Assembly: GCA_963797555.1 (NCBI GenBank)
Contig: CAWCPV010000003.1
Location: 32,001 to 96,000 of the forward strand
Source: an uncultured Gammaproteobacteria bacterium
GTDB lineage: Bacteria; Pseudomonadota; Gammaproteobacteria; CAWCPV01
DNA: 64,000 nt
Direction of reading: 5' to 3'
Of this stretch, positions 5,289-26,900 are shown in pieces. The notes under the pieces are model-generated. The model ran no database searches. It saw only the letters and a program-made list of their open reading frames with translations, and was not told the DNA's origin. How positions within the stretch are numbered: position 1 is the first letter of the stretch; the number at the start of each line of letters is the position of its first letter. The translations under genes and the position numbers were made by a program.

Positions 5289-5370
5289 GGACTGGCTCCT
5301 CCGTCCGTGATCTGTTTAACCGGTCATGGTGACTTTCGCCGCGTCGCATCATGAAAGCGCGCGCCATGAC

Positions 5371-5412: not shown

Positions 5413-5450
5413 GAATTTGGTGCGCCTTCGGGGCACCTTCCCGTCAAGCA

Positions 5451-6674: not shown

Positions 6675-6675
6675 G

Positions 6676-7362
6676 TCAGACCTCCATTGCCTCGAAGTGA
6701 ATGACCAGCGGTTTCCGATCTCCGGCCACGTGTTCCACGGTGACCGTCTGCTCGTAGCCCTTGGCGCGTATCTGCAGCCGTTTCTGGGGCGGCTCGGCGG
6801 GAACCGCGGCGAAGCGGAAAACCCCCCTGGAGTCCGTGTGCGTCGTGAGCCGCGGCGACCCAAGCTCCACATGGGCGTCGCAGACCGGCAGATTCCCCGG
6901 TCCGAGCAGCACTCCCACGAGCGAAGTGAGCGGGGAGTGATGCACCTCGGCGGGCTTTCGCACCCGCCCGACTTTAGGCTCCGCTCGCGGCAGCCGCAAC
7001 GGCATGCGCAGCATGAACGCGGGGCGCGGAACGATGCCCAAAGCGCTCCAGAAAACCGCTGCGGGCGGATCGAGATCCACCTTGAATTCCGGGGATTCCA
7101 TCGCAGCGAACACCAGTTGCCCCAGCATTCGGTGGGCCTCTTGGGGAGACTCCGCCCGCGCCGTGACCAGATAGCGTAGACCGAGCTGCAGTGGGGGCGT
7201 GCGTGCCGCAGATACGCCCGGCGCGTCGGGGAGCAGATCCAGCAGGTAGAGGTAGATAGCCGGCGCCGCATCGGAGTCGTTGGGCGGCGTGAACCGGACG
7301 TCAACGTCCGGCACGATGGCGCCCGCCCAGTCTTTGAGGCGCTGGTCGAGATCCTCGATCAC
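6676..7362 (-). CDS. Pvc16/DUF4255-like CIS cap protein with C-terminal carboxypeptidase-regulatory-like domain
   Basis: IYLYLLDL..LRYLVTA..FWSALG..PR; C-terminal TDSRGVFRF; GTG start preceded by GGGAGG. Confidence 0.75.
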   Translation of the reverse strand: MIEDLDQRLKDWAGAIVPDVDVRFTPPNDSDAAPAIYLYLLDLLPDAPGVSAARTPPLQLGLRYLVTARAESPQEAHRMLGQLVFAAMESPEFKVDLDPPAAVFWSALGIVPRPAFMLRMPLRLPRAEPKVGRVRKPAEVHHSPLTSLVGVLLGPGNLPVCDAHVELGSPRLTTHTDSRGVFRFAAVPAEPPQKRLQIRAKGYEQTVTVEHVAGDRKPLVIHFEAMEV

Positions 7363-7904
7363 GGCGCTTCCTCCCTCTCTGACGACCGGGACAGACACTG
7401 CCCCGAAAGCTGTCAGCATCTGCCTAGGACGGCGTAACGCGACAAACTCTTCTGTGCTTCCGGCGCTCCTCCGATGACCGCCAGCGCGTTTATCTGCCTC
7501 GCGTTGGGAGCCTACGTTACTCTGGCGCTTTTCCGATTGCAACGGCTCGGTGACACCGACGCCCGGGAGATATGGCCGTCCGCAAAGAACGCTGCATCCC
7601 TCGCAGTTCCGTTGCCGGACCGACAGGCGCCCATGTTCGCCATCGGGGCCCCTGCACGGAGGTCGAGGCCGCTGTGACCGCGCGGGCGCCGCCCCAATCT
7701 CGAGAACGGACCGCAGCGGTCTTCTCGCGCATGTTGGGAATCGTGTTCTATCTTTAAGGGTGGCCGGCATTCCCCGATAGACGGGTAGGTCGGGTTAGGC
7801 CCCCGCAAGGGGCGAGCCCCGGGCGTCGGCGGTGCCAATCCGCGGCACCCTGACCCACATCGGGACCCTTTGCCACCTTTTCATCGACAGGGAGGAGAGA
7901 ACGA

Positions 7905-9824
7905 ATGGCCAGCATCGTCACAATCACGCCCACAGCCGAGAGTGTGGCGTGCACTCCTGGTGGCTCCGCAGAGCACAGCTTCAGCGTCACCAACACGACC
8001 GGCGCGCCCATCGGGGTCGGTGCGAGAATCGTCACCGCCGACCCCAGTCGGGAAGCGTGGTTCACTATCCAGGGAGCTGCCGAACGCCAGCTTGCCCCCA
8101 ACGAGACCGACCAGGTGACGGTCTCGATCAAGCCGCCAGCAGGCGCGGCACCAGGCACTTACAAAGTCAAGCTACAGGTTTTCTCGTTGGAGCGCGGGCG
8201 CGCGGGCGAGGACTTCACCGACGGGCCGACCGTCGCGGTCGTGGTCGGCCAGTTGCCTCCTCCGCCACCGCCGCCGCCCGATGGCCGGTCCCGCTGGTGG
8301 ATAATGGCGGTCGTGGGCGTGGTGGCACTCTTGGTGGTCGTAGGGCTGGTCACCTGGCTGCTCTGGCCCCCCCGTACGCCCGAGGTGCCGGACCTCGCGG
8401 GGCACACGTTGAAGGAGGCGCAGTCGGAGCTGGAGCACGTCGGACTCACGGTCGGCAAAACCAGCGCGAAGCTTACCGGAAAAACTGCGGAAGGCCAGGT
8501 GATCGACCAGACGCCCGAGCCCGGCAAGCCCTTGAAGAAGGGCGATACGGTGGACCTCGTGCTGGAGGCGGCGTCGGTCGAGGTGCCGGACGTGGTGGGC
8601 AAGAAGGTAGTGGAGGCCCAAGAGGCGCTGAAAAGTGCAGGTCTCGCGGTGGGCCCGATCGCGGAGCAGCGTACCGGCGGGGCCGCGGGCGGCACGGTGC
8701 TGGGGCAAGAGCCTTCGAAGGGGCAGCGCATTTCACCCCAGTCGGCGGTCGCACTGACGGTGGAGGCCGCATCGATCCCCGTGCCGCGCGTCATGGGGCA
8801 AACCCTGGCCGAGGCGACGCGGACCCTGAGAGATCGCGGCCTGGTGGTGGGCGAGGTAACACAGCGTCGGACAGGCGGAACCCCGAGCGTGGTGCTGAAC
8901 CAGAGCCCGGACGAGACTCGGTCCGTCCCGCCCGGCACGGCCGTCGCCCTCACGGTCGAGCAGCAGACCGTCGCCGTCCCCAAGGTCGAGAACCTCGACC
9001 TGCAGAACGCCATGCGCGCGCTGGTCAGCCAGGGCTTGAAGCTCGGCGCGGTCAGCGAGCGCCGCGGTGGCGCTGCCCCGGGGGTCGTGCTGAGCCAGAG
9101 CCCGACCGAGGGGCAGCAGGTGGCTCCGGGCACCGCAGTCAACCTCGTTATCGAGCAGCAGAAGGTCACCGTGCCCCAGTTGCAGGGCCTCGCCCTGCAG
9201 GCTGCAACCGGGCGGATTTCCGCCGAGGGCCTGAAGGTGGGGACGGTGACGAAGGCGCGGGAGGGCAAGGCAGCAGGTACGGTCATTCGACAGAGCCCCG
9301 GCGCGGGAGCCACGGTGATTCCCGGGACCGCGGTGGCACTGGTCATTCAGGACCAGCCTCTGCCCGCGTGTCGTTGGACCCGTTCCGTCTCCGAGGAGTC
9401 GCCCAGCTCGGAGAGCTGTCCGAGCGGTTTCGCGCTGAAAGGCATCAAGTGTAGCGGCAGGTACTGCGACAACAAGGCGCTTTATTGTTGCCCCTATCTC
9501 ACGGAGGGCGACAGGCGGAGCCGCCTCTCGTGGTCGGGCTGGATATCCGAGGAGAGGCCCAACAACACCGCCACCACGCGCTCCGGCTTCGTCGCCGGAC
9601 TGCAGTGCAAGGGTGCCTACTGTGACAACGTCAGGCTCCAGTACCTGAGCACCCCGGACCTCCGCAACACCGGACACTGCAGCAACCAGCCTTACGTCTC
9701 CGAAGAAGGATCGGGAACATCCATTTGCGGAGGGTACGGCACGTTCGTGGCCGGGATGAGCTGCAAAGGAAGCCACTGCGACAATGTATCGTTAGAATGT
9801 TGCGGGTCCGACCTGGGCCGGTAG
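7905..9824 (+). CDS. Bitopic protein: Ig-like N-domain, TM helix, 5 PASTA repeats, Cys-rich 3-repeat C-domain
   Basis: VPDLAG/VPDVVG/VPRVMG/VPKVEN/VPQLQG repeats with matching V..Q.P..G ends; TM WWIMAVVGVVALLVVVGLVTWLLW; RBS GGAGGAG. Confidence 0.85.
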   Translation: MASIVTITPTAESVACTPGGSAEHSFSVTNTTGAPIGVGARIVTADPSREAWFTIQGAAERQLAPNETDQVTVSIKPPAGAAPGTYKVKLQVFSLERGRAGEDFTDGPTVAVVVGQLPPPPPPPPDGRSRWWIMAVVGVVALLVVVGLVTWLLWPPRTPEVPDLAGHTLKEAQSELEHVGLTVGKTSAKLTGKTAEGQVIDQTPEPGKPLKKGDTVDLVLEAASVEVPDVVGKKVVEAQEALKSAGLAVGPIAEQRTGGAAGGTVLGQEPSKGQRISPQSAVALTVEAASIPVPRVMGQTLAEATRTLRDRGLVVGEVTQRRTGGTPSVVLNQSPDETRSVPPGTAVALTVEQQTVAVPKVENLDLQNAMRALVSQGLKLGAVSERRGGAAPGVVLSQSPTEGQQVAPGTAVNLVIEQQKVTVPQLQGLALQAATGRISAEGLKVGTVTKAREGKAAGTVIRQSPGAGATVIPGTAVALVIQDQPLPACRWTRSVSEESPSSESCPSGFALKGIKCSGRYCDNKALYCCPYLTEGDRRSRLSWSGWISEERPNNTATTRSGFVAGLQCKGAYCDNVRLQYLSTPDLRNTGHCSNQPYVSEEGSGTSICGGYGTFVAGMSCKGSHCDNVSLECCGSDLGR

Positions 9825-10210
9825 CGGGAGCCGCGCCGCCTCGCGGGGCCCGCCTGAGCGGCACAAGTCGCCCAGGGCTCCTCGCGGGGCGGCTCTTACT
9901 TACAGAGCAGCGCCTGTGTTCTGGGGTTCCTCGGCCGGTTTGACTGGTGGGAGATGCATGACCTGGCGTTCGGGCGCGGGCTTCTCTTTTCCGTCCGATG
10001 TGCCGGCTCGGGCACACATTCGCCGTGGGCCGAATACAGGCCGGCAGGCTAGGAACGCGCGGCGCGGCTCCATGCACCACGATCCGCGGTTGGCGGGATA
10101 GAATTGAGAAACAGGGCGCAGTCTTGACGCTTGGACCAATTCCTGGCCTGAGAGCCTGTAGTGAATGACGCAAGACGAGGGCTACCGCAGCGCTAAAATC
10201 AACGGCTTGT

Positions 10211-10234
10211 TATAGGAGCGGCTTGAGCCGCGAA
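10211..10234 (+). repeat. GTAG-type REP-like element
   Basis: TATAGGAGCGGCTTGAGCCGCGAA; inverted homologue at 22147-22170. Confidence 0.5.
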
Positions 10235-10337
10235 CGGTATTTCTTCACAAGACCTCATGCTCGGCAGGGGCACCACACGGCATAAAAATGACTGTTTTCA
10301 AGGCAACTCTGAGTTCCCTCCGCCAAGTGTGATTGGG

Positions 10338-12348
10338 GTGTCCGAGCAAGACATCCTGATGGGCGGTGCCCGGCGCATCGAGATCGGCCGCGACGCCGTC
10401 GGCAACACCATCATCACCGGCGACGGCAACGTCGTCGGTGATCGAAGCGGTGCGGCGCCTTCCGGACCCGCAGGCCGCGCCACCCGGCTCGGCCCCAACC
10501 CTTACAAGGGGCTGGCCGCGTTCGACGAGGACGACGGCGAACGTTTCTTCGGGCGTGAGGCCCTGACCGGGAAGCTCTGGGAGGCGTTGCTTGCGCTGCA
10601 CGCGCCGCTGGACGCATCGCCTCCCTTGCGGCTGCTCGCCGTGGTCGGACCTTCGGGCTGCGGCAAATCCTCCGTGGTGCGCGCAGGGCTGCTGCCTGAG
10701 CTGGCGCGCCGGCCGCTCCCTGGCCTGGAGCGCTCGCGAGTCGCGGTGCTCACCCCCGGGGCGCACCCGCTGGAGGCGCTCGCCACCGTGCTGGCGCGTA
10801 TCGCGACGGACGATCCGGCCCCCATCGCCAAGGCGCGAGAATTCGCAGAAGAACTGAAGAGACCCCCGCACGACGGTCTGCGGCGCATCGGTGACGCCTT
10901 CCCGGGCAGCGCCAGCGCCCCCCTCGTCGTGCTGGTCGATCAGTTCGAGGAGGCTTATGCCCTCTGCCAGGACCCCACCGAGCGCGATGCCTTCATCGCC
11001 AATCTGATGGAGGCGGCGGCCGACCGCGGCGCCCGGGTCTCCGTGGTGCTGACGCTGCGCAGCGACTTCCTCGGTGCCACCGTGCGCCATCCGGCCCTCA
11101 ACGCGCCATCGCCGACCAGGGCATCCTGGTGCCGGCCATGGGCGAGGACGAGCTCCGCCGGGCCATTGCCGAGCCGGCGCGGCGGGCCGGCCATCCGCTG
11201 GAAGAGGCCACCGTCGATCGGCTGATCGGCGAGACCCTGGGCCGCGAGGGGGCGCTGCCGCTGCTCGAGTTCACCCTCACCCGCATTTGGGAGGGGCTTG
11301 CCGAGGGCAAGGCACCGGCCGAGACGCTGAGGGCGTTGGGCGGGGTGGGCGGTGCGCTCGCCGGGGAGGCCGAGCGGCTGTTCGAGCGGCTGACCGAATC
11401 CCAGCAGCAGATTGCGCGGCGTGCCTTCCTCGCCTTGGTGCGGCTCGGGGAGGGCACGCGGGACACGCGCCGGCGCGCGGTTCTCCCCGAGATGGTGGCT
11501 GCGGGCGAGCGTCCCGAGCAGGTGCAGGAGGTCCTGCGCGCCTTCGCGCGGGCGGGCGAGCGGCTGGTCACGCTCTCCGACGGAGGGCGGCGAGGTGTGG
11601 GCGGAGGTTACCCACGAGGCCCTCTTCGAGCACTGGACGCGGCTCCAGGGCTGGTTGACGACGGGTCGCGACGACCTGCGCTTTCACCGGCGCCTCGCTG
11701 AGGCGGCCGAGCACTGGGACCGGGCGGGACGCCCCGAGGGCCTGCTCTGGCGCCCGCCCGACCTGGATCTGCTGGATGCTTTCCAGCGCCGCGCTAGAGC
11801 GGACATGACAGCCCTGGAGGTGGACTTCCACCACACCTCGCTGGCTCGGGAACGGGCGCGTCGCCTCGCCAAGCGCGCGACGGTCTCGGGCCTGGTCCTG
11901 CTGCTGATTCTGATGGGGGGCCTCGGGGTGCTCTTGGAGCATCAGCGTAGGCTGGCCGACGAGCAGACGCACGAGGCCGAGACGGCTCGTCACCGCGCCG
12001 AGGAGCAAAGGGGCCTGGCGGAGCAGCAGAGGCTTCAGGCCGACATGGCTCGGCAACAAGCCGAGGAACAAAGAACTCTCGCAACCGCCAGGGAGCTGGC
12101 GGCCAGGGCGAATCTGGCGCTCGCAAGCTTTTCTGAATGGTGTAGTGTCCTGAGCACGCTTCTGTCCGTCGAGTCAGTCCGGCGACAGCCCACCTTCGAG
12201 GGCCAAATGGCTCTGATGGCTGGTCTACGGGTGCTGCGCTGCCCCATCGCCCGCCTTCCGCATGACGCTTGGGTCGAGGCCGTCGCCTTCAGCCCGGACG
12301 GCACGCGCCTCGCCACCGCAAGCAAGGACAGGACCGCGCGGCTCTACG
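10338..12348 (+). pseudogene. nSTAND1-type NTPase + TM + WD40, frameshifted and truncated after the first WD40 repeat
   Basis: NPYKGLAAF, FFGRE, Walker A GPSGCGKSS, Walker B LVDQFEE, GALPLLEF, HEALFEHW, WD40 VAFSPDGTRLATASKDRTARLY spread over 3 frames. Confidence 0.85.
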
Positions 12349-12434
12349 ATAAATTCGTGGCGCGCCTCCGCGCGCTGCTCGCCGCTCAGGTAGTCATCCG
12401 CGCTGACAGGGGTCCAGTGGGCGTGCGAAGCCAT
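12349..12434 (-). pseudogene. N-terminal fragment of a Uma2-family endonuclease
   Basis: MASHAHWTPVSADDYLSGEQRAEARHEFI, abutting the truncated WD40 gene on the opposite strand. Confidence 0.55.
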
Positions 12435-12600
12435 GGCTTCCCATCGCTGAGGTCGATGCCGCCCATCATAAGGACCTGAAGCGGGAACCACAAACGCGCC
12501 GCAAGCGCGGGTGCTGGGGAGTCCACGGCGCAGCCGTGTCGGCCGCCATCCCGCCGGGCAACGCTGGGCTCTGCCCACCCGCCGATCAGAACCCAGAAAC

Positions 12601-15441
12601 TCAGAAATCAGAATCCGCCAGGGACACCACCACCCGAAACCCCAGGGCGTAGCCGAAGCTGCCGGGATGATCCCTGCTCCGGTAGGCGCAGCGCGCGACC
12701 CTGCGGTCGCTGCTCCAGGAACCGCCGCGCACCACGCGCGGGCCCTCCGCCTGCGGGTCCTCTCGCCCGTCCTCGGCCGATACGGGTAATCCCGGTAGAG
12801 GCTCGCCGTCCACTCCCAGACGTTGCCGGAGAGGTCGTGGATGCCCTGCGCCGTGGCACCGGAGGGATAGACGCCCACCGGGGTCGTCCGCAGCACGCGC
12901 CCCTCGGCGGTATTGGCCCGCTCCGGACTCCAGCGGCGTCCCCACGGGTAGCGCCCTCCGCGGGGGTAGCGGGCGGCGCGCTCCCAGGCCGCCTCGCTGG
13001 GGAGGGCAACGCCCTGCCCCGGCGCGAGGGGCGGCTGCGCGGCGTCCCCCGCCGCCCGCCACCGGTCCTGGAGCCACAGGCAGTACGCGCGCGCCTCGAA
13101 CCAGGTGACGCCCACCACCGGCTGGCAGGGGTGGTTGAAGGGCGCGTCGTCCCAGTAGGTCGGCCGGTCCGCGGGGCGACTCCCATAGGACTTTTTCATC
13201 TCTCGGGCGAAGTCCTCCTCGTCGAGAGCCAGAGCGTCCTCCCAACGGGCCACGATCTGATGACTCCAGCCCTGCTGCCCAGCCGGCGCGGGTTCTCCTT
13301 CAGCCAGCGCCATAGGTCGATCAGGTCCTCGACCGCCTGGCTCTTCAGCTCGCCGCGCCGCCAGGCCCGAGCCTGGGCGTCGGCCACCAGCGCTCGTCCT
13401 GGTAGCCCCCCGCCTGCCAGAAGCAGGCGTACTCGGCATTGGTGACCGGGTAGCGGCCGATCCAGAAGGCCGGAAGCGGGACCTGGCAAGGGGGGAACTC
13501 GTCGCCAGCCGGCACCTTCGAAAGCCGAAGCCGGAGCAGCTCCCAGAGGCTCGAGCCCACCCGAAAGGCGCCCGCCGGCAGGGGCACGAGGGGCCGCAGC
13601 AGCACCCGCTGCCCGTCCACCGCGAGGGCCTGGAAACGCGGGTCGCCCAGGCTGCCCAGGGCTTCGCCTGCGGCGATGCGGTGGCGCAGGTGGACCTTGC
13701 GGTTCCCCATCGCCGCCAGCAGGTCGTTCTGGACGCCCTGGACCTGGCCCGGGTCCGCCGCCGCGCCGACCTCCGACAAGCAGCGGGCGGCGAGCACCGG
13801 GTTCGCCCGGCGCACCGCCTCGACGAAGGCGCCAGCATCTTCCGCGAGGCCCGCGGCCAGCACCGTCGGCTCCTCCCACCCCGTGGTCGGCGGCCCGGGC
13901 AGCGGCTCGTCCGGCCCCAGCGGGCCCGGATCGGGCATCTCCCGGACAAGCCTGCGCTGGCGCCAGCGGGGGGCGAGGTCCTCGCCTTTGGCGAAGCGCG
14001 AGAGCAGGGCGCGCGCCGAGAAGTACTCCTGGAGCTGGTGGTGGTAGAAACGAAGCTGCTCCTCGGCGCGCGCGTCCCGCTCGCCCTCGCGCCGCGGCTC
14101 CACCTCGGTGTCCAGCAGGGTGGCCGCGAGCCCCAGGCGCTCGACGACCGCCGGGGCAACGTCCACCGGGCCGTCGGCGGTCTCCACCGTCCGGGGGATG
14201 CGCTGCCGCGCCTCTTTCCGCGGCAGCCGCACACCCGCCCCGAAGGGCTGCAGGGTCTCGGCCAGACCGGAGAGCGCCATGGCGAGGGCTTCTTCTCCGG
14301 GCCAGTCGGGGTGGTTGCGGTCGTGCTCCCGGGCGAGCAGCAACCTGACGAAGCCCTTGAACAGGGCGGCGCGGCTCCGCGGCCAGTCCCCGCCTTCCTT
14401 GACCAGGGCCGCCAGCATGGCGAGATACCAGGGATTGCGCACGAGGTCGAGCAGCGGGCTTCCCTCCAGCCTGCCCCAGGCCTCCCCGGCGAGCTCCGAG
14501 GTCAGGTAGCGGGCGAGAAAGGTCTGCACCCGAGGGTCGTCCAGGCGCTCGATCTCTACCTGAGGCAGCCCGAGGGGCTCGCCGTAGTCCCGGCTGCGGC
14601 AGGTGACCACCACCTGGTTGCCCGGCCGCTCGGCGAGCTTTGCGATGAAGCGGCGCCACTCCCCCACCCGCACGCGATAGTCCCGCTCGTCTTCGAAGGG
14701 CATCTCGTTCAGGGCGTCGCAGAGCAGCAGGACACCGCCGCCGTCCACCCGCGCCTGCAGGTCGGCGGTCCCGACCCACTTCCACTGCGCCTCCAGCAGC
14801 TCGTGGGGGGAGCGGTAGCCGCGGTAGTCGGCGAGCGGCAGGAACACCGGGAACGGCCCCTGCCCTTCCTCCAGCCGGCGGCGCGCCGCCTCCAGCGCCA
14901 GACGGTACAGGGTGGTGGTCTTGCCGGCCCCCGGCTCGCCCAGAAGCGCCACGGCGTGGTGGCGGCCGAGCGCCTCGGCCACGTTCTCCAGGCGCACGCG
15001 CTTCACCTGGCGCTGGGGCCCTTCCCCGAGCACCTGCAGCTCCGTGTACTCGGGGGCCAGATCCTCGCTGGTCAGCATCCCGGCCAGCGGCACGAACTGG
15101 GTCGCCCAGCGCCCGTAGCGGGGGCTCACCAGCATCGCGGCCAGGTAGGCCCGTTCGTCCCCCTGTCGGGCGGCGGCCGGCCAGAGGTCGGACGCAGCCT
15201 CCCTGGAAAGGGTCACCTGGGGAGCGCCGGGTGCGCTGACCATCAGGAGCCCCCGCGCGGGGTCCGCCTGGAGGGTCGCCTGGCGATCGGCGAGCATCTC
15301 CCGCAGGACGGAGAGGACTTCGTCGAGCTGCTCCGGGCTGAAGGGGCCAAGACGGAGGTTCAGGTCGCGGCCGATGACCGTGCCGGCCTGCACCGGCCCC
15401 GCGTAGATGGCCCCGCCTCCCGTGTCGATTCAATCCGGCAT
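12601..15441 (-). CDS. DGR target 1: NACHT/STAND NTPase + FGE-sulfatase (C-lectin) domain, frameshifted in this assembly
   Basis: Walker [61 protein letters not shown]...GFRVVVS; ~3 indels; in-frame TGA at codon 4 after ATG 15441. Confidence 0.88.
12622..12741 (-). repeat. DGR variable repeat VR1
   Basis: 120-nt match to TR with 14 mismatches, all at TR adenines. Confidence 0.95.
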
Positions 15442-15663
15442 GTCTTGGCTCAGGGGTGCACAAGATCCCCGGCGCCGTGCCGCTCGGGCGGCAGGACGCC
15501 GGGCGCTGCGCTATTCGGCCGGCCGCGGGGCTGCCGCGGGCGCGACCCGGACCGGGCTGGGCTGGCTCTTCTCCCTGGCACCGTCCCGCATCGCTGGATG
15601 ACGGGATCTGCCGGCCGTGTCAAGCGGGCTGCGCCCGCCATGCCTCCCAGGGAAAACGGCTAT

Positions 15664-15783
15664 GGACACCACCACCCGAAACCCCAGGTTGTTGTTGAAG
15701 TTGTCGGGATGATTCCTGTTCCGGTAGGCGCAGCGCGCGTTCCTGCGGTTGTTGTTCCAGGAACCGCCGCGCACCACGCGCGG
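15664..15783 (-). ncRNA. DGR template repeat (TR)
   Basis: AAC-rich copy translating as [39 protein letters not shown], directly downstream of avd. Confidence 0.95.
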
Positions 15784-15807
15784 TGGCAGCCCGGCCCGAC
15801 ATCCAGT

Positions 15808-16155
15808 CTAGCGCAATTCTCTCCCCGGTCGACTCTTGCGCCAACCGCCGAGCAGCCTGCCGATTTCCTCCACCATGCGCGAGACGTGCTCGTACTGCCC
15901 GTCACTGAGAAGGTCCAGGTCGCGGCACAGCCGCAGGTGGAGCCGCAGCTTGACCAGGGTTACGTCGGCCTTCTGAAGCATGGGCTGAGCGTCGCTGGCG
16001 CAAGCCGCCTCAATCAGCTCCTCGTGGAAACGCAGTGCCGTTTCCTGTAGGGCCTGCGCCAGGACGAAGCGCTGCTGTCGGGGAAACCGCAGGGTGGCCG
16101 GTATGAGCCAGCGCAGGAGGTCGTAGGTGCGGGAGAAGATGGGTGATTCCTTCAT
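15808..16155 (-). CDS. avd: DGR accessory variability determinant (four-helix bundle)
   Basis: MKESPIFSRTYDLL...FPRQQRFVLAQ...LRLHLRL...EIGRLLGGW; lies between RT and TR. Confidence 0.92.
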   Translation of the reverse strand: MKESPIFSRTYDLLRWLIPATLRFPRQQRFVLAQALQETALRFHEELIEAACASDAQPMLQKADVTLVKLRLHLRLCRDLDLLSDGQYEHVSRMVEEIGRLLGGWRKSRPGRELR

Positions 16156-16226
16156 CGGCGCCAGCGTTCAGCGACGTAGGGCAGCTCGACCTGCCGCATC
16201 ACCGCCCGGCGGCCATCAGCGGACGG

Positions 16227-17386
16227 CTACCCAGTCCTCGTCGCTCCACGTTCCATGTCACTCCCGGCTCGAACAGCGAGCCCCAGAGTCGTCCGGTCAC
16301 ACAGCAAGGCCCGGCGCAGGCCCCAGGTGTCGCCGTGCGCCGCGTGGGCCACCCAGCCCTGGACGCGGCGAGCGAGCTGGACAGGGCTCATCTCGCCCCG
16401 TGCGGCGGCTTGCCGCCAGGCCCTCAGCCGCCGGGCGAACGCCACCCCATTGCGCCGCCTCAGGCGCCGGTGGGTGGGAAAGACCGTGAATCCCAGGAAC
16501 GGGACGCCGTTCCTCACCGGATAGACCGTGCTGGAGCGCTCGTGGAGCGTGAGGCGAAGCGAGGCGAGCCGCTCCCGGATCGAGCCCCTTCCATTCCCAG
16601 AGCCGGCCCTTGTCGTCGCCGAACAGCAGGAAGTCGTCCACGAACCTGAGGTACGCCGGGCAGCGCAGGCGGCGCTTCACGAACTGGTCCAGGTCGTCGA
16701 GGTACACGTTCGCCCAGAACTGGCTGGTCAGGTTGCCGATGGGCAGCCCCCTGGGCCGGTTGACCGCGAACAGGTCGTCTCCGGGGAAATACACCATCGT
16801 GTACTCGTCCTTCAGCACCTCGGCGCCGTTCTCGAGGGTCACGTCGATGAGCCAGAGCACTCCGGGATCGGCGATCCTGCGGGCGAGCATGGCCCTCAGG
16901 CAACCGAGATCCACGCTGGGAAAGAACTGTCGGAACGTCGCACTGAAGCACGAAGCGGTAACGCCTCGCGAATGCCTGGGCGCGGTCCAGGGCGCGGTGG
17001 GTCCCCTTTCCTACCCGGTTGGCGTAGGAATCGTCGATGAACGACCTTTCGAACAGGGGCTCGATGACGTTGCAGAGGGCGTGATGAACGACCCGGTCTC
17101 GAAACGGGGCGGCGGAGATCAGGCGGCGCTTCGGATCGCGGATATAGAAGGAACCGTACGGCCCCGGCCGGTAGGTGCGCTCCCGAAGCTCCCGCTCCAG
17201 CTCGAGAAGGTTATGCTCCAGGTCGAACTCGAAGGCGGAGGCGGGCGAGCGCGGCGCTCGTCCGTGCGGTGCGTGGTGCTCGGAGCCCTCCCTGCCCCGC
17301 TTGCCGCGCGCGGCCTTTTGCCAGGCGCTGTACAGGTTCGCGAACGAGGTTACCCGCGGGTACAGGTTGTTGTAGGTTCGGGTCAA
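16227..17386 (-). CDS. DGR reverse transcriptase, frameshifted in this assembly
   Basis: [32 protein letters not shown] (DGR-type SQ motif), RFVDDF, GVPFLGF; probable TTG start at 17386. Confidence 0.93.
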
Positions 17387-17465
17387 TGGGGAGCCTCGTG
17401 GCAACAGGGAGGACGCCGGAAAGCCCGCCCCTCCGCATCCTCGCGCCGAATCAGAAGCCAGAAAC

Positions 17466-20379
17466 TCAGAATACAGAATCCGCCAGGGACACCACCACCC
17501 GAAACCCCAGGGAGATCGAGGAAGTAGTCGGGATGATTCCTGCTCCGGTAGGCGCAGCGCGCGCTCCAGCGGTCGTCGTCCCAGGAACCGCCGCGCACCA
17601 CGCGCAACGAGGGCTCCCAGTCCACCGCGAACCTTCCGAGCGGGGTGTAGGGGTACTCGCGAAAGGCGCTCAGGGTCCACTCCCAGACGTTGCCCGCTGC
17701 ATCCTGGAGCCCCGCCGGCGTCGCGCCGAGGGGGTACATGCCGACGGCGGTGGGGTGCCCGATCCCGCTATCGTCGATATTGGCCCTGTCCTCGTCCCAG
17801 TCGGCGTCTCCCAGGGGAAGGGGCGGGCGTCGGCATGGCGGGCGGCCTTCTCCCACTCGGCCTCGGTGGGCAGGCGAATCCGATGGCCCTCGGGCATGGA
17901 AAACCCTGGTTGGTCTGACCCCCGTAGCTGCGCGTCGAGCCATGCGCAGTAGACCATGGCCTCGAACCAGGAGACGCCGATGACGGGGCGGTTCGCGAAG
18001 GGCCTCTGCGCGTCCCACCCCACGGGGGCGCCCCGAAGCTCCGCGGGGCGGGATCGCAGCCAGTCTCGCAGGGCCTCCGCCTCCGGCCGGCTGTCCCAGC
18101 GCCCGTGACGCCACTCCCAGCCGAGGGCCGTCCACCAGGTCTCGTCGTCGTAGCCGCCCGCCTCGACGAAGGTTTCGACCTGCCGCACCGTCACCGGATA
18201 GCGGCCGATCCAGTATCGGTAAGGAATTTCCAGACGCTCCGGATTGCCCATCTCGTCCTCCCTCTCGCGGCTCCCCATAACGAAGGGGCCGCGCGGGGAT
18301 CTCGATGAAGCCTGCCAGGGGCTCCGGCTCGCCCCGGTAAGCGCGGGGAAGGTGGAAGCGAGCGGGGTCGAAGCGAGGGTCGCCGAGCTGGCCCAGGACA
18401 TCGCCGGCCTCGGCCCGGTCGCGCGCAGACAGGGCGCCCTGCTCCAGGAGGTCGACCAGGCGCCCGGCGACCCGGCGCAGCAGCGACTCGCCCTCCTCCT
18501 CGTCGCAGGCGCGCTGGACGCCCACCTCAAGCAGCACGTCCCCCGCGAGCCAGACCTTTCTCCAGTCCCCTTCTGCGCGCGATACCCGCTCCGGGCAGAG
18601 CGCCCGGACCAGGTTCAAGGGCTTCTCGGTCTCCCGCTTGTCGTGGACCAGATAGCCGACCGCCAGCAGGATCACCTCCCGCCAAAAGGTGCCCTGCTTC
18701 GCCAACGCGGCGGCTTCCCTGCCGAAATTCGGCCGGCGCGCGAGGTGCACGGAGGCCAGGTATTCCTGGAAGGTGCGGTGGGGAAAGGAGAACAGCCGCC
18801 CCTTGCGCTCGATGAGCAGGCTCGCCCGAAGGCGCAGGGTCTTTAGGAGCCGTTGCGACCACCCGTAGTCGTCCTTGGGGTGCAGCCGGGCCAGGCCCTT
18901 CAGCAGGGTCAGCTCGTCGATGCCGGCCGCCTCGTCCTCCGAGCCGCCTGCGGCACGCTCGGCATGGGCCTCGAAGGCGAGCCGCTCGAGCACGCCCCTG
19001 AGGTCGTTCAGGTCCCGGCCCACCTCCCGCAGGAGGTCCTGCAGATGCGGAGCCTCCACCTCCTTGTACTGCTCCCAGTGCAGCAGCAGGATGTCCACGG
19101 CGTCTCGATAGAGCAGGGCGCGCTTCTCCGGCAGCTCCCGGCGGTGGGTGTGGACCAGCGCCATGACGGTCAGCAGCAGGGGGTTCGGGGCGAGGCGCCA
19201 CAGGTCCGGGCGGCGCACCGCCTCGCGGAGCTTTCCCGCCAGGCGCTCGGACTCGCCGGGCGGGAGGTCCCGCCACTTGTCGGCCACCTCGGCGTACCAG
19301 GCGCCGATGAAGCGGTCGATCTTCTCCTCGCTGAAGGGCGCCAGCTCGAAGGCCGGGAAGGCCGCCGCCGGGAGCTGCCAGTGCGGCTCCTGATAGGAGA
19401 GCACCCGGCAGGTGACCAGGTGGCGGCTGCGCCCGAAGCGTTCGGCGAAGGCCTGCACGCCGCTGCGGACCAGGGCGAGCAGCTTCTCGTCCTGGGGCGG
19501 GACTTCGTCCAGCCCATCCAGCAGGACCACGGCCTGCCCGTCGTCCAGGGCGCGCTCCAGCACACCGGCGGCGAAATCCAGGCGGCGCGCCTTGAGGTCG
19601 TGGCAGACGAACGCCCAAAGCAGATCCGGGGAACCCTCGGCGGGCCGCGGGTCGCGCCGCGCGAGCCAGCGGGCGAAGTCGCGCAGGACGACGGGAATCG
19701 GCAGGGCCTTCCGGTCCCGCTCGGGCCAGTCGGGGATGCTGTCCCAGTCGCAGGTGGCGAGCGCCCGGGTCAGGTGGTTGACGAAGGTGCTCTTTCCGGA
19801 GCCGGGGTCTCCGACCAGCACCAGGGAGCCGTGCAGGACGCTCGCCTCCAGAGCGGACAGGGGGCGGGTCTCCGGGTCGCGGCCGGCAATATCCCGTCCT
19901 CGCTGCTCGGGCAGCCCCGGGGGTTGGCCTTTGGCCGCGGCTCTCAGGGCGCCGTCGATGGCGCCGGAGGGCAGCATCGTCGTCGTGTCCAGGCGGATGT
20001 AGACGCGGGCGAGGCTGAGCGGCTGGCGCACCGCGGAGACCTCTCCCGGCGCGGCGTCCACGCCCCGCAACGGCAGCGCGCCGCAGCGCTCGGCGACCAC
20101 GGCCCGGTAGATGGCCTCGGCGCGCTCGGGCGACGCCGGGGTGGCCCCGATGTACACCCCGCCCTGGATGATGATCTGGTCTCGCGCGACAACGTCGCGG
20201 GCTGCGTGCACCTCCCCGCCGAAGACGCCCCCGCCCCCGGTGTCGAGGAGCGGCTCGAGCTTGGCCTGAAGCTCCGCCTTATTCTGGTCGGTGACCTCGT
20301 CCCCCAGCACGCCTCTCAGGGACTCCAGCTTGCTCAACTGCTCACGCAGACGGGCGATGACGTTGTCCTTTTCCTCCAT
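17466..20379 (-). CDS. DGR target 2: NACHT/STAND NTPase + FGE-sulfatase (C-lectin) domain, frameshifted in this assembly
   Basis: [65 protein letters not shown]. Confidence 0.9.
17487..17605 (-). repeat. DGR variable repeat VR2
   Basis: Matches TR with 12-13 substitutions, all at TR adenines, plus a 1-nt insertion. Confidence 0.93.
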
Positions 20380-21508
20380 GCTTCGCCATCCCCTCCGTGT
20401 CGGTCAGACCAGCCAGTCCGGTCCCCCGGGCCGTCTCGCTATCCGCACACCGCCTCTCGTTGACGCAGGGCGTCTCACGGGAAAAGCGGGCGCGGCGAGG
20501 GCTCTCGGCATCGGCAGGAGCTTTTCCTCGGGGCCGGCCCTTCAGGGCTCGTAACTCCCAGGCGGGTCACATAGCGGCGGTCGGGGCGTGCGCCCCGTCT
20601 CTGACCAGGCGCAGGTCCTGGACCAATGTCGAGACCCGGCGCTCTTCCAGCCCCGCCTGTGGATCAGGGCCCGCAGCTCCGCGAGCAGTGCCAGGAATTC
20701 CTGCAGGGTGACGTTCGAAGCAAGCTCCACCCGGTTGCCGTCGCCGGTGACGATGGTGCTCCCGCTCACGCTGCCGCCCACGGCGACGCCCCGGTCGCCG
20801 ATGATGATCCGGTCCCGCCAGTGACCTCTTGCGCGTGGACAGGTCCCAGGAACAGGGCTCCGCCCCCGGTGTCGACGACCTTGGGCTGGTGCGGAAGGTC
20901 CGGACTGCGCCGTGGGGCCTCGGGGGGTGGCACCGTGCGGCCGGCATCTTTGTGCGACTCCGCCGTGAGCCCTTCTCGGGCGCTGCCTTCGCTTCGGGTG
21001 GAGGGGCGCCGAAGGAACTCCCGAACCAGTGCGGCGACGGCGGCGACGAGCACCGCCAGGCCCAGCAGCCAGGCGAGCACACCGGACCAGCCCGACTCGA
21101 CGCAGGGAGAAGATCATTGCAGGGAAACCCGGGCCTTTGCTCGGCTTCCCCGCCCCCGGACTCCGCCTTCTTGGCTGGCGCGGTCGGCCTCGGCTGGCGA
21201 CGGCGCCGGAGCGGAAGCAGGCTTTGCTACCAACGCCGCCTGCGCCAGGGGAAACACGAAGTCTCCCTTGTCCAGACGAGGGTCGACGGATGGTGCCGGA
21301 TCTGGGGATGCTGGGCACCGCGGGTGTAGCACGCCTCTCAGGGACTCCAGCTTGCTCAACTGCTCACGCAGACGGGCGATGACGTCGTCCTTTTCCTCCA
21401 TGCTTCGCCATCCCCTCCGTGTCGGTCAGACCAGCCAGTCCGGTCCCCCGGGCCGTCTCGCGATCCGCACACCGCCTCTCGTTGACGCAGGGCGTCTCAC
21501 GGGAAAAG
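20306..21508. repeat. 181-bp direct repeat (20306-20486 and 21328-21508)
   Basis: Two copies with 2 mismatches; covers the upstream region and first 25 codons of DGR target 2. Confidence 0.9.
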
Positions 21509-22119
21509 ATTCCGGGCGTCCTCTCGGAGATGTGTTCGGGGACGCTGCGCGAGAGGTAGAACAGCGAGCCGGAGAAGCAGCTATCGAACAGGAACAGGGC
21601 GTGCTTGGCCTCGATGCGCCTGGCATAGTGCGGGAACTCCTCCATGTCGAGGGCGGCGGCGAGAAAGCCATGGGGATCGTCGTCCGGGCGGGGGGCGTCT
21701 ACCGGGACGATGTAGCCCATCTCCGCCCCGTAGGAGAGCTTCCGGGTGTAGCCGTGGCCCGCGAAGTAGAACAGCAGGCGGTCGTCCACGCCGCCCCCGT
21801 GGGCGTTGATGAAGTCCTCGAAGGCCCGGCGCAGCGCCCCGCGATCGGGGTCCTCCACCACCGTGACCCGGAACCCCTGGCGCTCCAGCGCTCCGCGGAC
21901 GCTCTTCACGTCCTCCTTCACACCCGGAAGCTTGGGCCAGTGCTGGTACTCGCTCGCCCCAATCACCAGGGCGTAGCTATTCCGGTAAAGGCCCACCTCC
22001 TGGCCGGCCGGGTTCTTGTAGATGACCACGCCGCGCTCCTCCCCCGAGGCGCCCGAGGCGGCCGGGGACAGCCCGAGGCCCAGGAGCCACGCGGCGACGA
22101 ATACGCGTGTGCCTCTCAT
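20567..22119 (-). pseudogene. Signal peptide + caspase-like C14 peptidase + TM + cytoplasmic Gly-rich motif tail (disrupted)
   Basis: MRGTRVFVAAWLLGLG signal; YFAGHG/FDSCFSG dyad; remnant YTRGAQHPQ..GTIR..DKGDFVF; TM LAWLLGLAVLVAAVAALV; tail DTGGGALFLGPVHA..IVTGDGNRV. Confidence 0.75.
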
Positions 22120-22146
22120 GCTGTCAGAATCTCATGAAAGATGCCT

Positions 22147-22170
22147 TTCGCGGCTGAAGCCGCTCCTACA
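22147..22170 (-). repeat. GTAG-type REP-like element
   Basis: TGTAGGAGCGGCTTCAGCCGCGAA on the minus strand. Confidence 0.55.
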
Positions 22171-22288
22171 GGCCGCGATTTTGGCGCGGCGGTAGCCCGC
22201 GGCTTAGGTCGCGGCCGAACAATTTGGCGACCTCTCCCCTCGCCAGCCGGAAGCCCCGTGGACTCATGGCAGCAGCCCCGTCCCGGAG

Positions 22289-23092
22289 TTAAGCAAGGTG
22301 GAAAGCGGCCACCTCCAGAGGGTTCCCCACCTCGTCCTCGCTGTCGGCGCCGAACGCGAGATCCGTGCTCACCTCGTGTTTCGTAGATATGGCCGCCGAG
22401 GCGAGACCCCAGAGAATGCCCAGACACCAGAACGGGATGAGCCAGTCGCAAAGGTAGATGTACTGGCGGGTGTGGTAAAGCTCGTGCTTGAACGGGGTGT
22501 GGCCGTACCACGTGTTCACCGTGCATCCCACGGTGGTCGCGTAGTGGCCGCCGGTGTCGGGGGAGAACTCGGTGAAGAACACCCCGCCCGCGAACCCGGA
22601 CTTGCCGCTCCCGAAGATTGCCCAGACGAGGCCCGCGACCCAGATGGCGAGCCCCGCCGCCGAGGTTACCAGCGCGAAGGGCAGCTTGGCAGGCGCCACC
22701 AGAAAAGAGAAAAAGAACGGGCCCGGGGCGAGCCGCGCCCCGAGCGCCGCCGAGCCGTAGTCCAGCGCCGCCGCCCACAGCGTCGCTCCGAGCCTGATTC
22801 CGGCCAGCGTCCAGAAAAACGTCGCGGGGTGGCCCAGGGCGTGGCGGAACCCCTCGGAGGCCGCCCAGATCCACGCGAACAGGCCATGGGAGAACACGAA
22901 GAAGAAGGTCGCGGCCGCACCGGCGTCGGGGCTCGCACCGGCGAACAGGAAGTAGCCGGCCAGGACGCCCGCCAGGTAATCGAAGACCAGCTCGCTCCAA
23001 CTGAAGGTCCAGCTCACCAGCATGTTGATGCCGGCACAGAGCAGTACCACACATGGCCAGAACACGAAAGCGACCACGTAGACGTTGTTCAT
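22289..23092 (-). CDS. Polytopic membrane protein with HExxH motif
   Basis: Several hydrophobic helices; KHELYHTRQY and NPLEVAA. Confidence 0.65.
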   Translation of the reverse strand: MNNVYVVAFVFWPCVVLLCAGINMLVSWTFSWSELVFDYLAGVLAGYFLFAGASPDAGAAATFFFVFSHGLFAWIWAASEGFRHALGHPATFFWTLAGIRLGATLWAAALDYGSAALGARLAPGPFFFSFLVAPAKLPFALVTSAAGLAIWVAGLVWAIFGSGKSGFAGGVFFTEFSPDTGGHYATTVGCTVNTWYGHTPFKHELYHTRQYIYLCDWLIPFWCLGILWGLASAAISTKHEVSTDLAFGADSEDEVGNPLEVAAFHLA

Positions 23093-23246
23093 GATCGGCT
23101 ACACCCCCCTTTGCCCCGATGAGACGCGCTGTCAGCACCCGATTGTTTTCAGGACAGCATAGCCCAGCGTGCTGCGCCGCGTGCTGGCCTGCACGGCGTC
23201 GCCCGGCGCCTCGCGCGGGCTGTCCGCCCGTCCCTCCCCGGTCGTC

Positions 23247-23804
23247 CTACTTTGGCCCTTCGGCGGGCGCTCCAGCACCGGACGAAGTCTCTTCAGGCTC
23301 GACGGAGCGGGTCAGCACGTCCAGGCTGTCGTTGACCTTGGAGAGAAGGTCGTTCACGGCCTTCACTCCGGAAGCCGCCGTCTGTTTGGCCTTTTCCTCC
23401 AGCCTTTGCCGCTGCTTCTTGAGCGCGTTCAATTGGTCCACCAGCGAGGCCTTCTGCTGCTCGGTCGCTCCCAACGCCTTCTGTTCCAGGACATTGACCT
23501 TGGTCTGAAGATCCTGCAGTTCTCCCACGACTTTCTGCTGGGCCTCGGTCGCCGGCTGCGCTGCCGGCGCGCCCGCCTGTTCGCCCCCCTGGGTGGGTTG
23601 GGGCGCCCCAGCCCCGCCGGTGGCTTCGCCTGCCGGGGCCGGCGGCGGCTGTTCGGTGGGCGCAGTGGCTGCGCCGGTCCCGGGGGTTTGCTGCTGCGCG
23701 CCGCTTTCGGGCGCCTGTTCGGAAGTGTGGTCCTCCTTGCCGCAGGATGCGATGGCGAGTGATGCGCTGGCGAGCGCAATCGCGAAGAGTTGCTCGATCT
23801 TCAT
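23247..23804 (-). CDS. Lipoprotein, low-complexity linker + coiled coil
   Basis: MKIEQLFAIALASASLAIASC lipobox. Confidence 0.7.
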   Translation of the reverse strand: MKIEQLFAIALASASLAIASCGKEDHTSEQAPESGAQQQTPGTGAATAPTEQPPPAPAGEATGGAGAPQPTQGGEQAGAPAAQPATEAQQKVVGELQDLQTKVNVLEQKALGATEQQKASLVDQLNALKKQRQRLEEKAKQTAASGVKAVNDLLSKVNDSLDVLTRSVEPEETSSGAGAPAEGPK

Positions 23805-23952
23805 GAGGTTCTCCCTGACTGTGCGTCTCTCTGGAAGTGGTGACAACCGCGGCCGCCCCGTGGCTTTGCCCCGCTCATGCGGCCCGGACCGTGCGTTCGC
23901 GAAAGCCAGGATGAGGCAAGACGAGGGGCGAGTCCAGCCCAGCCCCGCGGCT

Positions 23953-26900
23953 TCACCCGCGCGGTCCCAACAAGCCCGACAACGTTCCCCACAAACGACG
24001 GTACCACGGCACGCGGCCGGCCGGGCGCGCGGCCGCCTCGGCCTCGGGGCGCAGTGCCTGCTCGAAGGCGCTTATCCAGGCTCGCTGCGCCGCGGTCAGG
24101 CGAGATTCGGCTTGCAGGCCCTGGAGGATGTCGAGCCCGCGCTGCAGCAGCGCCCGTGCCTCCGCGGATTGCGTAGGCCCTCCGAGGGCCTGCGCGACTT
24201 TCCAGCAGGACACCACGACATCCGCCTGCCAGCCGGCGTTGCTCGGGTCCTGGGCGGCCAGGCGCTCGCGGATGGCGAGGCTCTCCCGGTAACTCTGGAG
24301 CGCCCCGGCGCCCTCGCCCTGGGCGGCCAGGATGTCCCCGACCTTGTTGTAGCTCACCGAGAGGTCGCGCTGCCACCCGGCGTTGCTCGGGTCCTGGGCG
24401 GCCAGGCGCTCGCGGATGGCGAGGCTCTCCCGGTAACTCTGGAGCGCCCCGGCGCCCTCGCCCTGGGCGGCCAGGATGTCCCCGACCTTGTTGTAGCTCA
24501 CCGAGAGGTCGCGCTGCCACCCGGCGTTGCTCGGGTCCTGGGCGGCCAGGGCGCTCGCGGATGGCGAGGCTCTCCCGATAAGCCTGGAGCGCCCCGGCGC
24601 CCTCGCCCTGGGCGGCCAGGATGTCCCCGACCTTGTCGTAGCTCACCGAGAGGTCGCGCTGCCAGCCGGCGTTGCTCGGGTCCTGGGCGGCCAGGCGCTC
24701 GCGGATGGCGAGGCTCTCCCGATAAGCCTGGAGCGCCCCGGCGCCCTCGCCCTGGGCGGCCAGGATGTTTCCGACCCTCTCGTAGCTCACCGAGAGGTCG
24801 CGCTGCCAGCCGGCGTTGCTCGGGTCCTGGGCGGCCAGGGCATCCAGGCACTCGACGGCGTGCTCCAGCCACGCGCGGGCCGTTTCCAGGTATCCGAGGC
24901 CGGCCCAGGCGTCGCCCTGGAGCAGTGCGAAGGCTCCCTCGTTCCGGAGGCCGAGCCTCCAGGGCGCGGCCACGCTGCCCAGGGCGCCGAGGCCGTCCAG
25001 GTAGCGACCTCGGCCGTAGAGCCACTCCGTGAGCGGGAGCAGCAGGTCGCAGGCGCGGTCGGTCTCGCCCACCTCGCCCAGGTGGTGAGCGGCCTCCCAG
25101 GCGTCGTTCCAATCGGCCGAGGTGGCGGCGCGGCGCTCCAGGAAATCTCCCGCGCGGCGGTGGCCTTCGGCCACCAGCGCGTCAAGGTCGGGCGTGAGTC
25201 CGCGGGCCAGGCTCGCCACGCTCGGCTCCACCTCGAAGCGCCGCCGCACCCGGCCGTCCGGGGCCGGCTCGGCCACCTCGGTGAGCAGGGACGCGTCCCG
25301 CAGGCGGCGAATGGACGCCTCCGGAGCGTCGTCGCCCAGGGCCCCGAACAGGTCCCAGTCGGCCGGCAGGCGCAGCACCGTGGCGCGCACCAGCAACCGT
25401 CGGGCGGGCTGGTCCAGCACCCGCTCCCACAGCGCCTCGAACAGCAGGTCCTCGGAGAGCTGCTGGCCGAGCGGTGGTAGCAGGGGCTTGACAAGATGCG
25501 TCCACTCCTTGTTCGCCTCGTCCTCGTCGGCGGCCGGCGCGTCCACGTCGTGCAGGGTCTGGGCGGGCTCGGCAAGACCGCGTTGTGCGTCGAGGCCCTC
25601 AAAGTCTACCGCCGGCAGGGCCGCGAGGTCCTCCACCTCTGGTGCGCCGAGGTGGAAGAGTCCGCGGATGCGGTGGAGGGGCTGGTCCGCCAGCTCGAGC
25701 AGGCCGCCGCGCCGCTGGCCGGCGAGGTGTGGGACGCCCTGCTCGCCGGCCTCGACCAGGTGGCCGCCGCCCATCCCGACCTGCAGCGTCCGGCCGGGCG
25801 CCTCGGGGTGCTCCTCGCCGCCCTCCTGGCCCGCGAGGGGCAGGGGCCGCTGGTGCTCTACCTGGACAACCTCGAGTCCCTGCTGACTGCGCCCGAGGCG
25901 GAGGACGCCTTCGGCGACTGGCGCGACCCCGAGTGCGCCGCCCTGTGGCGGGTGCTGCGAGAACGCGCCGCGGCCTCCGCGGGACGCCTCGCGCTGCTCG
26001 CTTCCTGCCGTTACCGCCACCGAGACTTCGCCGACGTGCTGCTGCCTTTGCGGCGGCTGCCGCCCGACGCCCTGTGGCGGCTCATGGGGTGGTTTCCCGG
26101 GCTGCGCCGCCTCTCCCGCTGGAGCCTCAAGCGGCTGGTGGAGGGGCTCGCGGGCCACCCCTGGCGCAGGTCCCGGCGCAAGGCGTGCAGCTCCCGGCGG
26201 CGTCCCACGAAGCCCTGGCGCAGGATGCGGGTGCGCGACCCCGGCGCCACCTCCTCCTCGAGGCGCTCGGGGGGAGCCTCCACGGTCTCGGTGTACCGCT
26301 TGGGGATAGGGAGCCCGAGGGGATAGTCGGGGCCGCGGTGGTAGAAGACGAGCTGGGCCCAGGCAAAGGGGGTTAGGCCACCGGAGGCTCCGGAGGCGTC
26401 GCGCAACACCTGGCGGGCGTCGGGCACGAGCGGCCGGGCCATCGCCTGCCGGGCGGCGCGCACCGCGTCGCGGGTACGCCGGCCGCGGGCGATCTCGCCG
26501 TAAAAGGCCGCCTCCGCCCAGGTGGACTGGGCGTCGTAAACCGGGCCGAAGTAGGCCACCACCTGAGCCACGCCGTCGCGGTGGAGCAGCGCGGCGGCGG
26601 AGGCGATGCCGGCCTGCTCGCCGGCGCCCAGGCTGGGGGCATCGCCCCCGTGACAGCAGGCGAGGTAGAAGAAACGCGGGAACCGCGCCGGTGCGGCGCG
26701 GCGCATATCCTTCAGCAACCGGTCGACCGGCACGCCGTCCTGGCCGCCGAAGGCGTCCTCGAACACCAGCTCGCCCGGCCCGCCGTGGCCGGAGAAGTGC
26801 ACGCCGAGCGGCGGCGGGTTGGCACGCAGGCCCTCGACCAGGTCGTCCAGCTCCCCCATCTCGTTGACCTGCACCCCGACATGATCGTGCAGCGCCCGGG

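Follow-up and report, generated by a model that had tools for sequence, protein, structure and literature searches.

A two-target diversity-generating retroelement with NACHT/C-lectin sensor genes, interrupted as assembled, in an uncultured gammaproteobacterium from a marsh

The window analyzed here is a stretch of 64,000 nucleotides from an uncultured marsh gammaproteobacterium (assembly GCA_963797555.1, contig CAWCPV010000003.1, positions 32,001 to 96,000 of the forward strand); coordinates below are those of the window unless another contig or locus is named. On its minus strand it carries a genuine diversity-generating retroelement (DGR) of the two-target STAND-NTPase/FGS (C-lectin) class, in the order target2, reverse transcriptase (RT), Avd, template repeat (TR), target1, as described in an earlier note made from the sequence alone. 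Both variable repeats, VR1 and VR2, have been rewritten from the TR. As assembled, the RT, target1 and target2 are all interrupted, a state that we are slightly inclined to read as recent decay.

The anatomy is that of a DGR: a TR/VR pair differing exclusively at TR adenines, a DGR-type RT adjoining the TR, an Avd gene, and a VR at the C-terminus of a target with a predicted FGE fold. The locus matches the known kind of NACHT/C-lectin DGR on every tested feature but an intact RT. The kind is already in print (Kaur 2021, PMC8195603; Dore 2024, PMC10907252), and, as the earlier note had said, DGR-diversified NLR-like sensors have been reported from Thiohalocapsa. What is new here is the interruption of all three large genes.

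Template and variable repeats

A repeat search of positions 9000-26000 returned a single three-copy family, at 12612-12741, 15654-15783 and 17478-17607. Alignment and counting were carried out on the 118-nt core common to the three copies, read on the minus strand. The A-rich member is the middle one (15664-15781), the TR, which contains 25 adenines and lies in non-coding DNA 27 nt past the avd stop codon. Read in the frame of the VRs, it has the 10 Asn (AAY) codons reported earlier, nine of them AAC and one AAT. Its adenines all fall at codon position 1 or 2 (25/25), and a stop is impossible at any variable codon. With 15 codons free to vary, each VR could encode about 3.3e14 peptides.

VR1 (12622-12739, minus strand) forms the C-terminal 39 codons of the lectin domain in target1 and differs from the TR at 14 positions, each of them a TR adenine (11 A to G, two A to T and one A to C). 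VR2 (17487-17605, minus strand), at the end of target2, carries 12 substitutions, again each at a TR adenine, together with one inserted base that shifts the frame. The earlier count of 14 for VR1 is thus borne out by alignment; for VR2 it had given 12-13 differences, which is right in placing every substitution at a TR adenine and is made exact as 12 substitutions plus a 1-nt insertion. The VR peptides that it quoted, including SSDRRV..SRDHPGSFGYA, were reproduced. Over both repeats, 26/26 substitutions are at TR adenines and 0/93 non-adenine positions have changed in either VR; realignment of the three copies, by which the earlier note proposed that its DGR call could be overturned, gave no non-adenine difference. 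Of the 118 bases 25 are adenines, and the hypergeometric probability that the mismatches would be confined to them is 8.5e-12 in VR1 and 6.1e-10 in VR2. The TR was the source for the rewriting of both VRs. The rewriting was recent, because there is no drift at all at the non-adenine positions.

That the paralogous lectin ends were instead homogenized by gene conversion, with the adenine bias arising by chance, deserves practically no credence. The repeats do sit in paralogous domains, and nothing else speaks for it, whereas probabilities of about 1e-11 and 6e-10, the position of the TR in non-coding DNA after avd, the presence of Avd and RT, and the same anatomy in related loci all speak against it. 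The adenine-mismatch counts refute such a non-DGR origin. Outside the repeats the two targets are divergent, as had been claimed: their NACHT parts share 24-26% amino-acid identity, and the sequences just upstream of VR1 and VR2 agree at 34/65 and 152/243 bases.

A search of the genome for remote VRs, recommended in the earlier note, was run and found none with A-only changes relative to this TR. Other TR/VR-like copies in the genome differ from it at 12-31 non-A positions and are parts of other DGRs or of a diverged paralogue on contig C2. In an exact-word scan of metagenome contigs, a 33-nt VR-specific word had no match and a 25-nt core word matched two contigs, both unrelated; no copy of the locus was found. 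In the Logan short-read contigs, which mix strains, the 40 listed of 858 substitutions include none in the VRs, and this comparison is silent on VR polymorphism.

Reverse transcriptase and Avd

The RT gene (16227-17386, minus strand, with a TTG start) is split over three frames, the changes lying at about 16932 and about 16589. Its pieces are 63-72% identical to the RTs of related DGR loci, which are single open reading frames (ORFs) of 372-373 aa. Those relatives pass the Pfam RVT_1 model (62-63 bits), whereas the window pieces taken alone, at 14.3 and 17.6 bits, fall below its cut-off of 29.6. The best PDB match of the first piece is 8ub7_A (E 5e-24), a group II intron RT being far weaker (1e-5). 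The motif IGNLTSQ, one of the RT motifs that we take to be DGR signatures, is present. The RT also has a 14-aa in-frame insertion after its GKRG motif (17230-17330, minus strand), and at about 16640 it reads RFVDD where five relatives have RY(V/A)DD, that is, F for the Y of the Y-x-D-D box.

The accessory gene avd (15808-16155, minus strand) is intact and encodes 115 aa. It scores 67.4 bits against Pfam bAvd (cut-off 40) and 101 bits against the NCBIfam equivalog NF033474, DivGenRetAVD (cut-off 80). Its sole match among solved structures is 4dwl, Bbp7; this and 8ub7 are presumably Bordetella proteins.

Target sensor genes

Target1 (12601-15441, minus strand) is predicted to encode an N-terminal Gly-rich motif, a NACHT domain and an FGE-sulfatase domain of the C-lectin fold. 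Pfam gives NACHT at 47 bits and matches FGE-sulfatase profile positions 5-67, 69-198 and 203-254 in three different frames; the last of these, out of 255 positions, covers VR1, and it is on this profile that the fold of the variable segment is predicted. Target2 (17466-20379, minus strand) has a coiled-coil start, the same Gly-rich motif, a NACHT/AAA_16 region and an FGE-sulfatase domain. Both targets have a central NTPase and a single C-terminal FGS domain, the arrangement of STAND NTPase-FGS conflict systems. The target1 family consists of NACHT plus FGE-sulfatase proteins of ~950 aa, with 198 matches at E<=1e-5 and a best identity of 62%; among the 120 of these that were listed are members from Chloroflexi, Candidatus Contendobacter, Thiodictyon, Verrucomicrobia and Streptomyces. 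The repeats and the Pfam matches together support the earlier view of the targets as NLR-like NACHT sensors with a VR-bearing C-terminal FGE-sulfatase/C-lectin domain.

Lesions in the RT and both targets

Lesions were mapped with intact homologues as rulers, using tblastn with the ~950-aa homologues for target1 and the target2 homologues of three related loci (L031, L033 and L068) for target2. Target1 has a TGA at codon 4 (15430-15432), where homologues have MPDT, MPEA or MPDS, and frame changes near 13375, 13270 and 12775. Target2 has frame changes near 18290 and 17811 as well as the VR2 insertion near 17515, which puts its last 10 codons out of frame. With the two frame changes of the RT, this makes nine lesions within 7.8 kb, eight frameshifts and one stop codon. 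An uninterrupted RT ORF, which is required for activity, is absent from the assembly, and the locus is non-functional as assembled. The RT frameshifts against which the earlier note had cautioned are therefore confirmed, and both targets are broken too. Its diversified receptor repertoire stands as far as the sensor targets and the rewriting of the VRs are concerned, but it is not operating as assembled.

Other DGRs are present in the genome, with at least three further RT-bearing loci: one at C4:372.5-380.5 kb (RT, avd, TR and two VRs), one on C6 at about 59-64 kb (whole RT, avd, TR and one VR) and one at C14:5-13 kb (split RT, avd, TR and two VRs). There are also an orphan TR-VR pair on C4 at about 520 kb (517500-525000) and two degenerate copies, at C2:188.5-197 kb and C6:47-52 kb. 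Some of the genes of these loci are split as well.

By a modest tilt of the evidence, we favor the reading that the DGR locus was recently inactivated and is degenerate in this genome copy, with intact alleles probably still present in the population; we liken it to the degenerate loci of Thiohalocapsa, where such loci occur beside complete ones according to the relevant part of Dore 2024 (PMC10907252), a circumstance that we count in favor of real decay. One of the lesions, the TGA of target1, is a nonsense substitution. There is structural damage next door: a caspase gene is truncated, an nSTAND1-WD40 gene is both broken and truncated, a stretch of 181 nt is duplicated, and a small-protein gene survives as a remnant. 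The genome has other loci that lack an RT, on C2, on C4 at about 520 kb and on C6 at 47-52 kb. Since rpoB and rpoC were not found in this 84.6%-complete genome, gyrA (an 845-aa ORF in an 858-codon open frame), a 1928-aa uvrA frame, carB (1076 aa) and dnaE (1190 aa) were used as frame controls. The lesions are local: all four of these long core genes, together about 15 kb, are uninterrupted. The uvrA frame (G000:C4:511393-516981, minus strand) is itself unusual, its 1928 codons amounting to about two UvrA lengths with three matches to the uvrA model.

Several observations weigh against decay, some of them from short-read contigs of four marsh metagenomes. These contigs are 88-99% alike to the locus and may derive from other strains; 12 of their 39 indels are listed, and these bear on three of the nine lesion sites. 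One extra base after 12773 restores the frame of target1 (6.4 of 28.1 depth in X1 and 8.1 of 8.1 in X2), the loss of one base at 16934 restores that of the RT (all covering depth in X1, X2 and X4), and a near-identical 419-nt contig with four substitutions has two gaps across the second RT lesion. Indels outnumber substitutions by eight to one among the lesions, and five of the indels lie in C or G homopolymers 2 to 4 nt long. The absence of drift at the 93 non-A positions of either VR would be unexpected for old decay. The competing explanation, to which we allow somewhat less than an even chance, is that the DGR is intact and possibly active, and that the nine lesions are consensus errors of a long-read metagenome in a strain-variable island. 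It draws on the same frame-restoring indels at two lesion sites, on the dominance of indels in mostly short C or G runs and on the perfect agreement of the TR and both VRs at non-A positions. Among the closely matching contigs listed, two have gaps, at lesion sites, and five that lie over lesion-free parts have none. The completeness of just 84.6% in a 20-contig assembly points the same way, as does a second dnaE-like gene (G000:C14:279113-281666, plus strand) that is split in two frames at about 280016. Set against it are the unbroken frames of the four core genes and the TGA substitution, as well as the truncations and duplication next door, which base-level errors could not produce; the frame-restored contigs, moreover, are 95-98% alike to the locus and may be other strains. 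It is very improbable, by comparison, that the RT of the locus is dead and a different DGR in the genome still serves its VRs in trans. RTs that might do so exist beside their own avd and TR: that of C6 is one 367-aa ORF, and that of C4 gives one high-scoring segment pair over residues 24-340. The identity of these RTs to the RT of locus L032, taken as a stand-in for that of the window, is no higher than about 48-56%, and their TRs show 25-31 non-A mismatches to this TR. No VR elsewhere fits this TR with A-only changes, and both targets are themselves broken. Work on the Bordetella element also stresses a tight RNA-protein fit (bioRxiv 2023.10.23.563531).

Related loci and host

Relatives of the locus were collected by a scan with a target1 alignment, one genome per species, and the best 80 of 270 relatives were considered, many of these loci being short contigs. 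The nearest, at 55-59% identity, are metagenome-assembled genomes (MAGs) of Anaerolineales and other Chloroflexota and a Thiodictyon MAG. An RT accompanies 16 of the 80 loci, an avd 12, an A-biased TR/VR pair 11, and two or more VRs seven. Three of them (L031, L033 and L068) have the order VR-RT-avd-TR-target-VR, which is that of the window, with whole genes, and two others (L032 and L050) have RT-avd-TR-target. The Bordetella phage DGR is ordered avd-TR-RT. The earlier note was correct that the window differs from it in this respect, yet RT-avd-TR is the conserved order of this clade, shared by all five loci. The occurrence of the closest cassettes in Chloroflexota is consistent with the unit having spread horizontally as a whole.

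On its gyrA, the host is a gammaproteobacterium, the nearest named matches (72-73% identical) being Thiohalobacter and MAGs of Chromatiales and Gammaproteobacteria. The cassette was found in 0/30 genomes of host relatives, all of which are related merely at the level of 'same class'.

RNA spacer and proposed mechanism

The 210 nt 3' of the TR are conserved in four related loci (L031, L032, L033 and L068). In the window they correspond to a structured non-coding stretch, the putative DGR RNA spacer (15455-15663, minus strand), with homologues of conserved, covarying structure at L031:5013-5245, L032:4406-4600, L033:9637-9905 and L068:4905-5095. RNAalifold on the five loci predicts 45 pairs, 15 of which have compensatory changes. 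In the alignment 93.8% of the pairing cells can pair, compared with 37-49% when the partners are slid, and pairs with double changes number 15 compared with 1-5, figures that come from five sequences and from a structure derived from the same alignment. One predicted helix consists of a 9-bp stem, a bulge and a 4-nt loop. An Avd-binding stem-loop has been reported just downstream of the TR in 207/278 DGRs (bioRxiv 2023.10.23.563531), and the predicted 9-bp stem of the spacer would fit it. Extra palindromic inserts interrupt the spacer structure in L031 and L033. An Rfam scan of positions 12000-21000 gave one sub-threshold, miRNA-like chance match only.

The 45-nt 3' flanks of VR1 (12577-12621, minus strand) and VR2 (17442-17486, minus strand) are identical at 40/46 positions, compared with 40/80 further downstream, and are unlike the TR flank. 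Common to the two VRs and absent from the TR, they are candidates for elements like the initiation of mutagenic homing (IMH) site. A hairpin or cruciform 3' of the VRs was considered and rejected, as the DNA there folds no better than shuffled sequence (z -0.7 and +1.0).

On the Bordetella model, the RNA of the TR and its 3' structured spacer would be bound by RT and Avd, and cDNA would be made with random bases opposite the template adenines. This cDNA would be exchanged for the final 39 lectin-domain codons of either target1 or target2, with the shared GC-rich 3' end and the VR-specific flank as guides. The products would be NLR-like sensors built of a short N-terminal Gly-rich motif, NACHT, helical repeats and the lectin domain, and such sensors would presumably bind invader molecules and pass on a signal via the N-terminal motif.

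The Gly-rich motif and a small partner protein

The Gly-rich motif (of the type T-G-G-G ... G-R-D-Q-I) starts both targets and the target1 family proteins. A regular expression built from the window's own copies finds four occurrences in the 5.3-Mb genome, three at this locus and one beside the C2 paralogue. Outside the NLRs, the motif is carried by small proteins, 130-170 aa long, whose C-terminal part is helical. In the window such a protein survives as a remnant in two frames (20545-21100, minus strand), which has the motif of the sensors and a helical part; tblastn with the L068 small protein matches 20671-20808 (E 2.6e-8). Pfam gave no matches to the remnant ORFs between the caspase gene and target2. 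Further copies lie at G000:C2:196719-197231, L031:8186-8614 and L068:8100-8492, and the family amounts to 15 unnamed proteins. Homologues follow a NACHT-FGE gene in at least 11/80 related loci, with N-termini that match those of the NLRs. The L031 protein reaches Pfam TCAD2 at 37.3 bits (cut-off 27), and no other copy does.

Models of effector-associated domains (EADs) are presumably held in Pfam, and the N-terminal motif matched no Pfam family at E up to 1. We suggest, tentatively, that the motif may be an unnamed homotypic adaptor that links the hypervariable lectin sensor with a small effector, one that possibly acts at the membrane; the helical protein is weakly TCAD2-like and ends in a hydrophobic helix. 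If so, the conserved unit would be target2-RT-avd-TR-target1-small protein, and the caspase gene a bystander. The small protein would then be a concrete candidate for the missing effector of this sensor class.

The earlier note had the sensors feeding a caspase/amyloid module, and this was not supported. The caspase ORF (21364-22131) covers profile positions 3-134 of 233 only, ending where a 181-nt duplicate begins. No caspase was found in the neighborhood of related loci (0/10 ORFs at five loci), and the motif of the sensors is in the small helical protein remnant, not in the caspase ORF. The 181-nt direct repeat is 99% identical between 20306-20486 and 21328-21508; its second copy stands in place of the rest of the caspase gene and repeats codons 1-25 of target2.

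On the other side of the DGR, an nSTAND1-WD40 gene (10227-12476, plus strand) lies in pieces, with nSTAND1 profile positions 1-175 and 333-378 in different ORFs, and has a single WD40 repeat before it stops, at a distance of about 120 nt from where target1 ends. Farther out are contractile injection system genes (1083-7358, minus strand; a VgrG-like hub, tube and sheath), followed by a gene for a protein with five PASTA domains (7854-9821, plus strand). A TPR-containing ORF of 1194 aa (23804-27385, minus strand) contains five to six tandem 144-nt units at 24117-24982.

Comparison with known systems

DGRs of clade 5D have two NACHT or nSTAND1 C-lectin targets, and nine loci are described in Thiohalocapsa (Dore 2024, PMC10907252). 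The present genome resembles that of Thiohalocapsa sp. PB-PSB1, with its DGR 3, and clade 5D generally in having several DGR loci, some degenerate, in N-terminal extensions without a known domain and in its marsh habitat (PMC10907252). It departs from Thiohalocapsa in that the gyrA of its host, an uncultured gammaproteobacterium, reaches no more than 73% identity with named taxa and the nearest cassettes, at 55-72%, are in Chloroflexota MAGs. Where the RT of Thiohalocapsa DGR 3 is cut by a transposon (PMC10907252), all three large genes are broken here by point lesions. The STAND NTPase-FGS systems, as far as outlined in the relevant text of Kaur 2021 (PMC8195603), combine an RT with a four-helix accessory gene, occur in several copies per organism and have N-terminal adaptors that are repeated on effectors. 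The locus shares with them the NTPase plus FGS targets, the adjoining RT and four-helix accessory gene, and the two or more copies per organism. The motif common to the sensors and the small helical protein fits their 'EAD principle', in which the adaptor is repeated on a separate protein (PMC8195603); the partner here is a small helical protein and not a peptidase or TIR effector.

The DGR of Bordetella phage BPP-1 (Mtd/Avd/TR/bRT) is similar in its adenine-specific transfer from TR to VR, its Avd and its lectin-fold target with a C-terminal VR, and probably also in the structured RNA that directly follows the TR on its 3' side and includes a tetraloop stem of 9 bp (bioRxiv 2023.10.23.563531). 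In contrast to that phage element, the present one is cellular, is ordered RT-avd-TR with a target on each side, and has no hairpin 3' of the VRs; its targets are predicted intracellular NLR-like sensors, where that of BPP-1 is a tail fiber. A short N-terminal motif of an NLR repeated on a small neighboring protein also recalls BASS amyloid signaling (Dyrka et al., bioRxiv 2020.01.06.895854). Relative to what is described there, the motif of the partner is N-terminal here as well, and no Bell domain was detected.

NLR-like sensors diversified by DGRs have been described only recently, and the locus adds a gammaproteobacterial, marsh-dwelling case to them. Its chief value is for the turnover of such loci, since the TR and both VRs agree perfectly at non-A positions and yet nine disabling lesions have been recorded in the genes around them. 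If the lesions are real, the inactivation would be very recent; if they are artefacts, they would call for caution over indels at immune islands in MAGs built from long reads.

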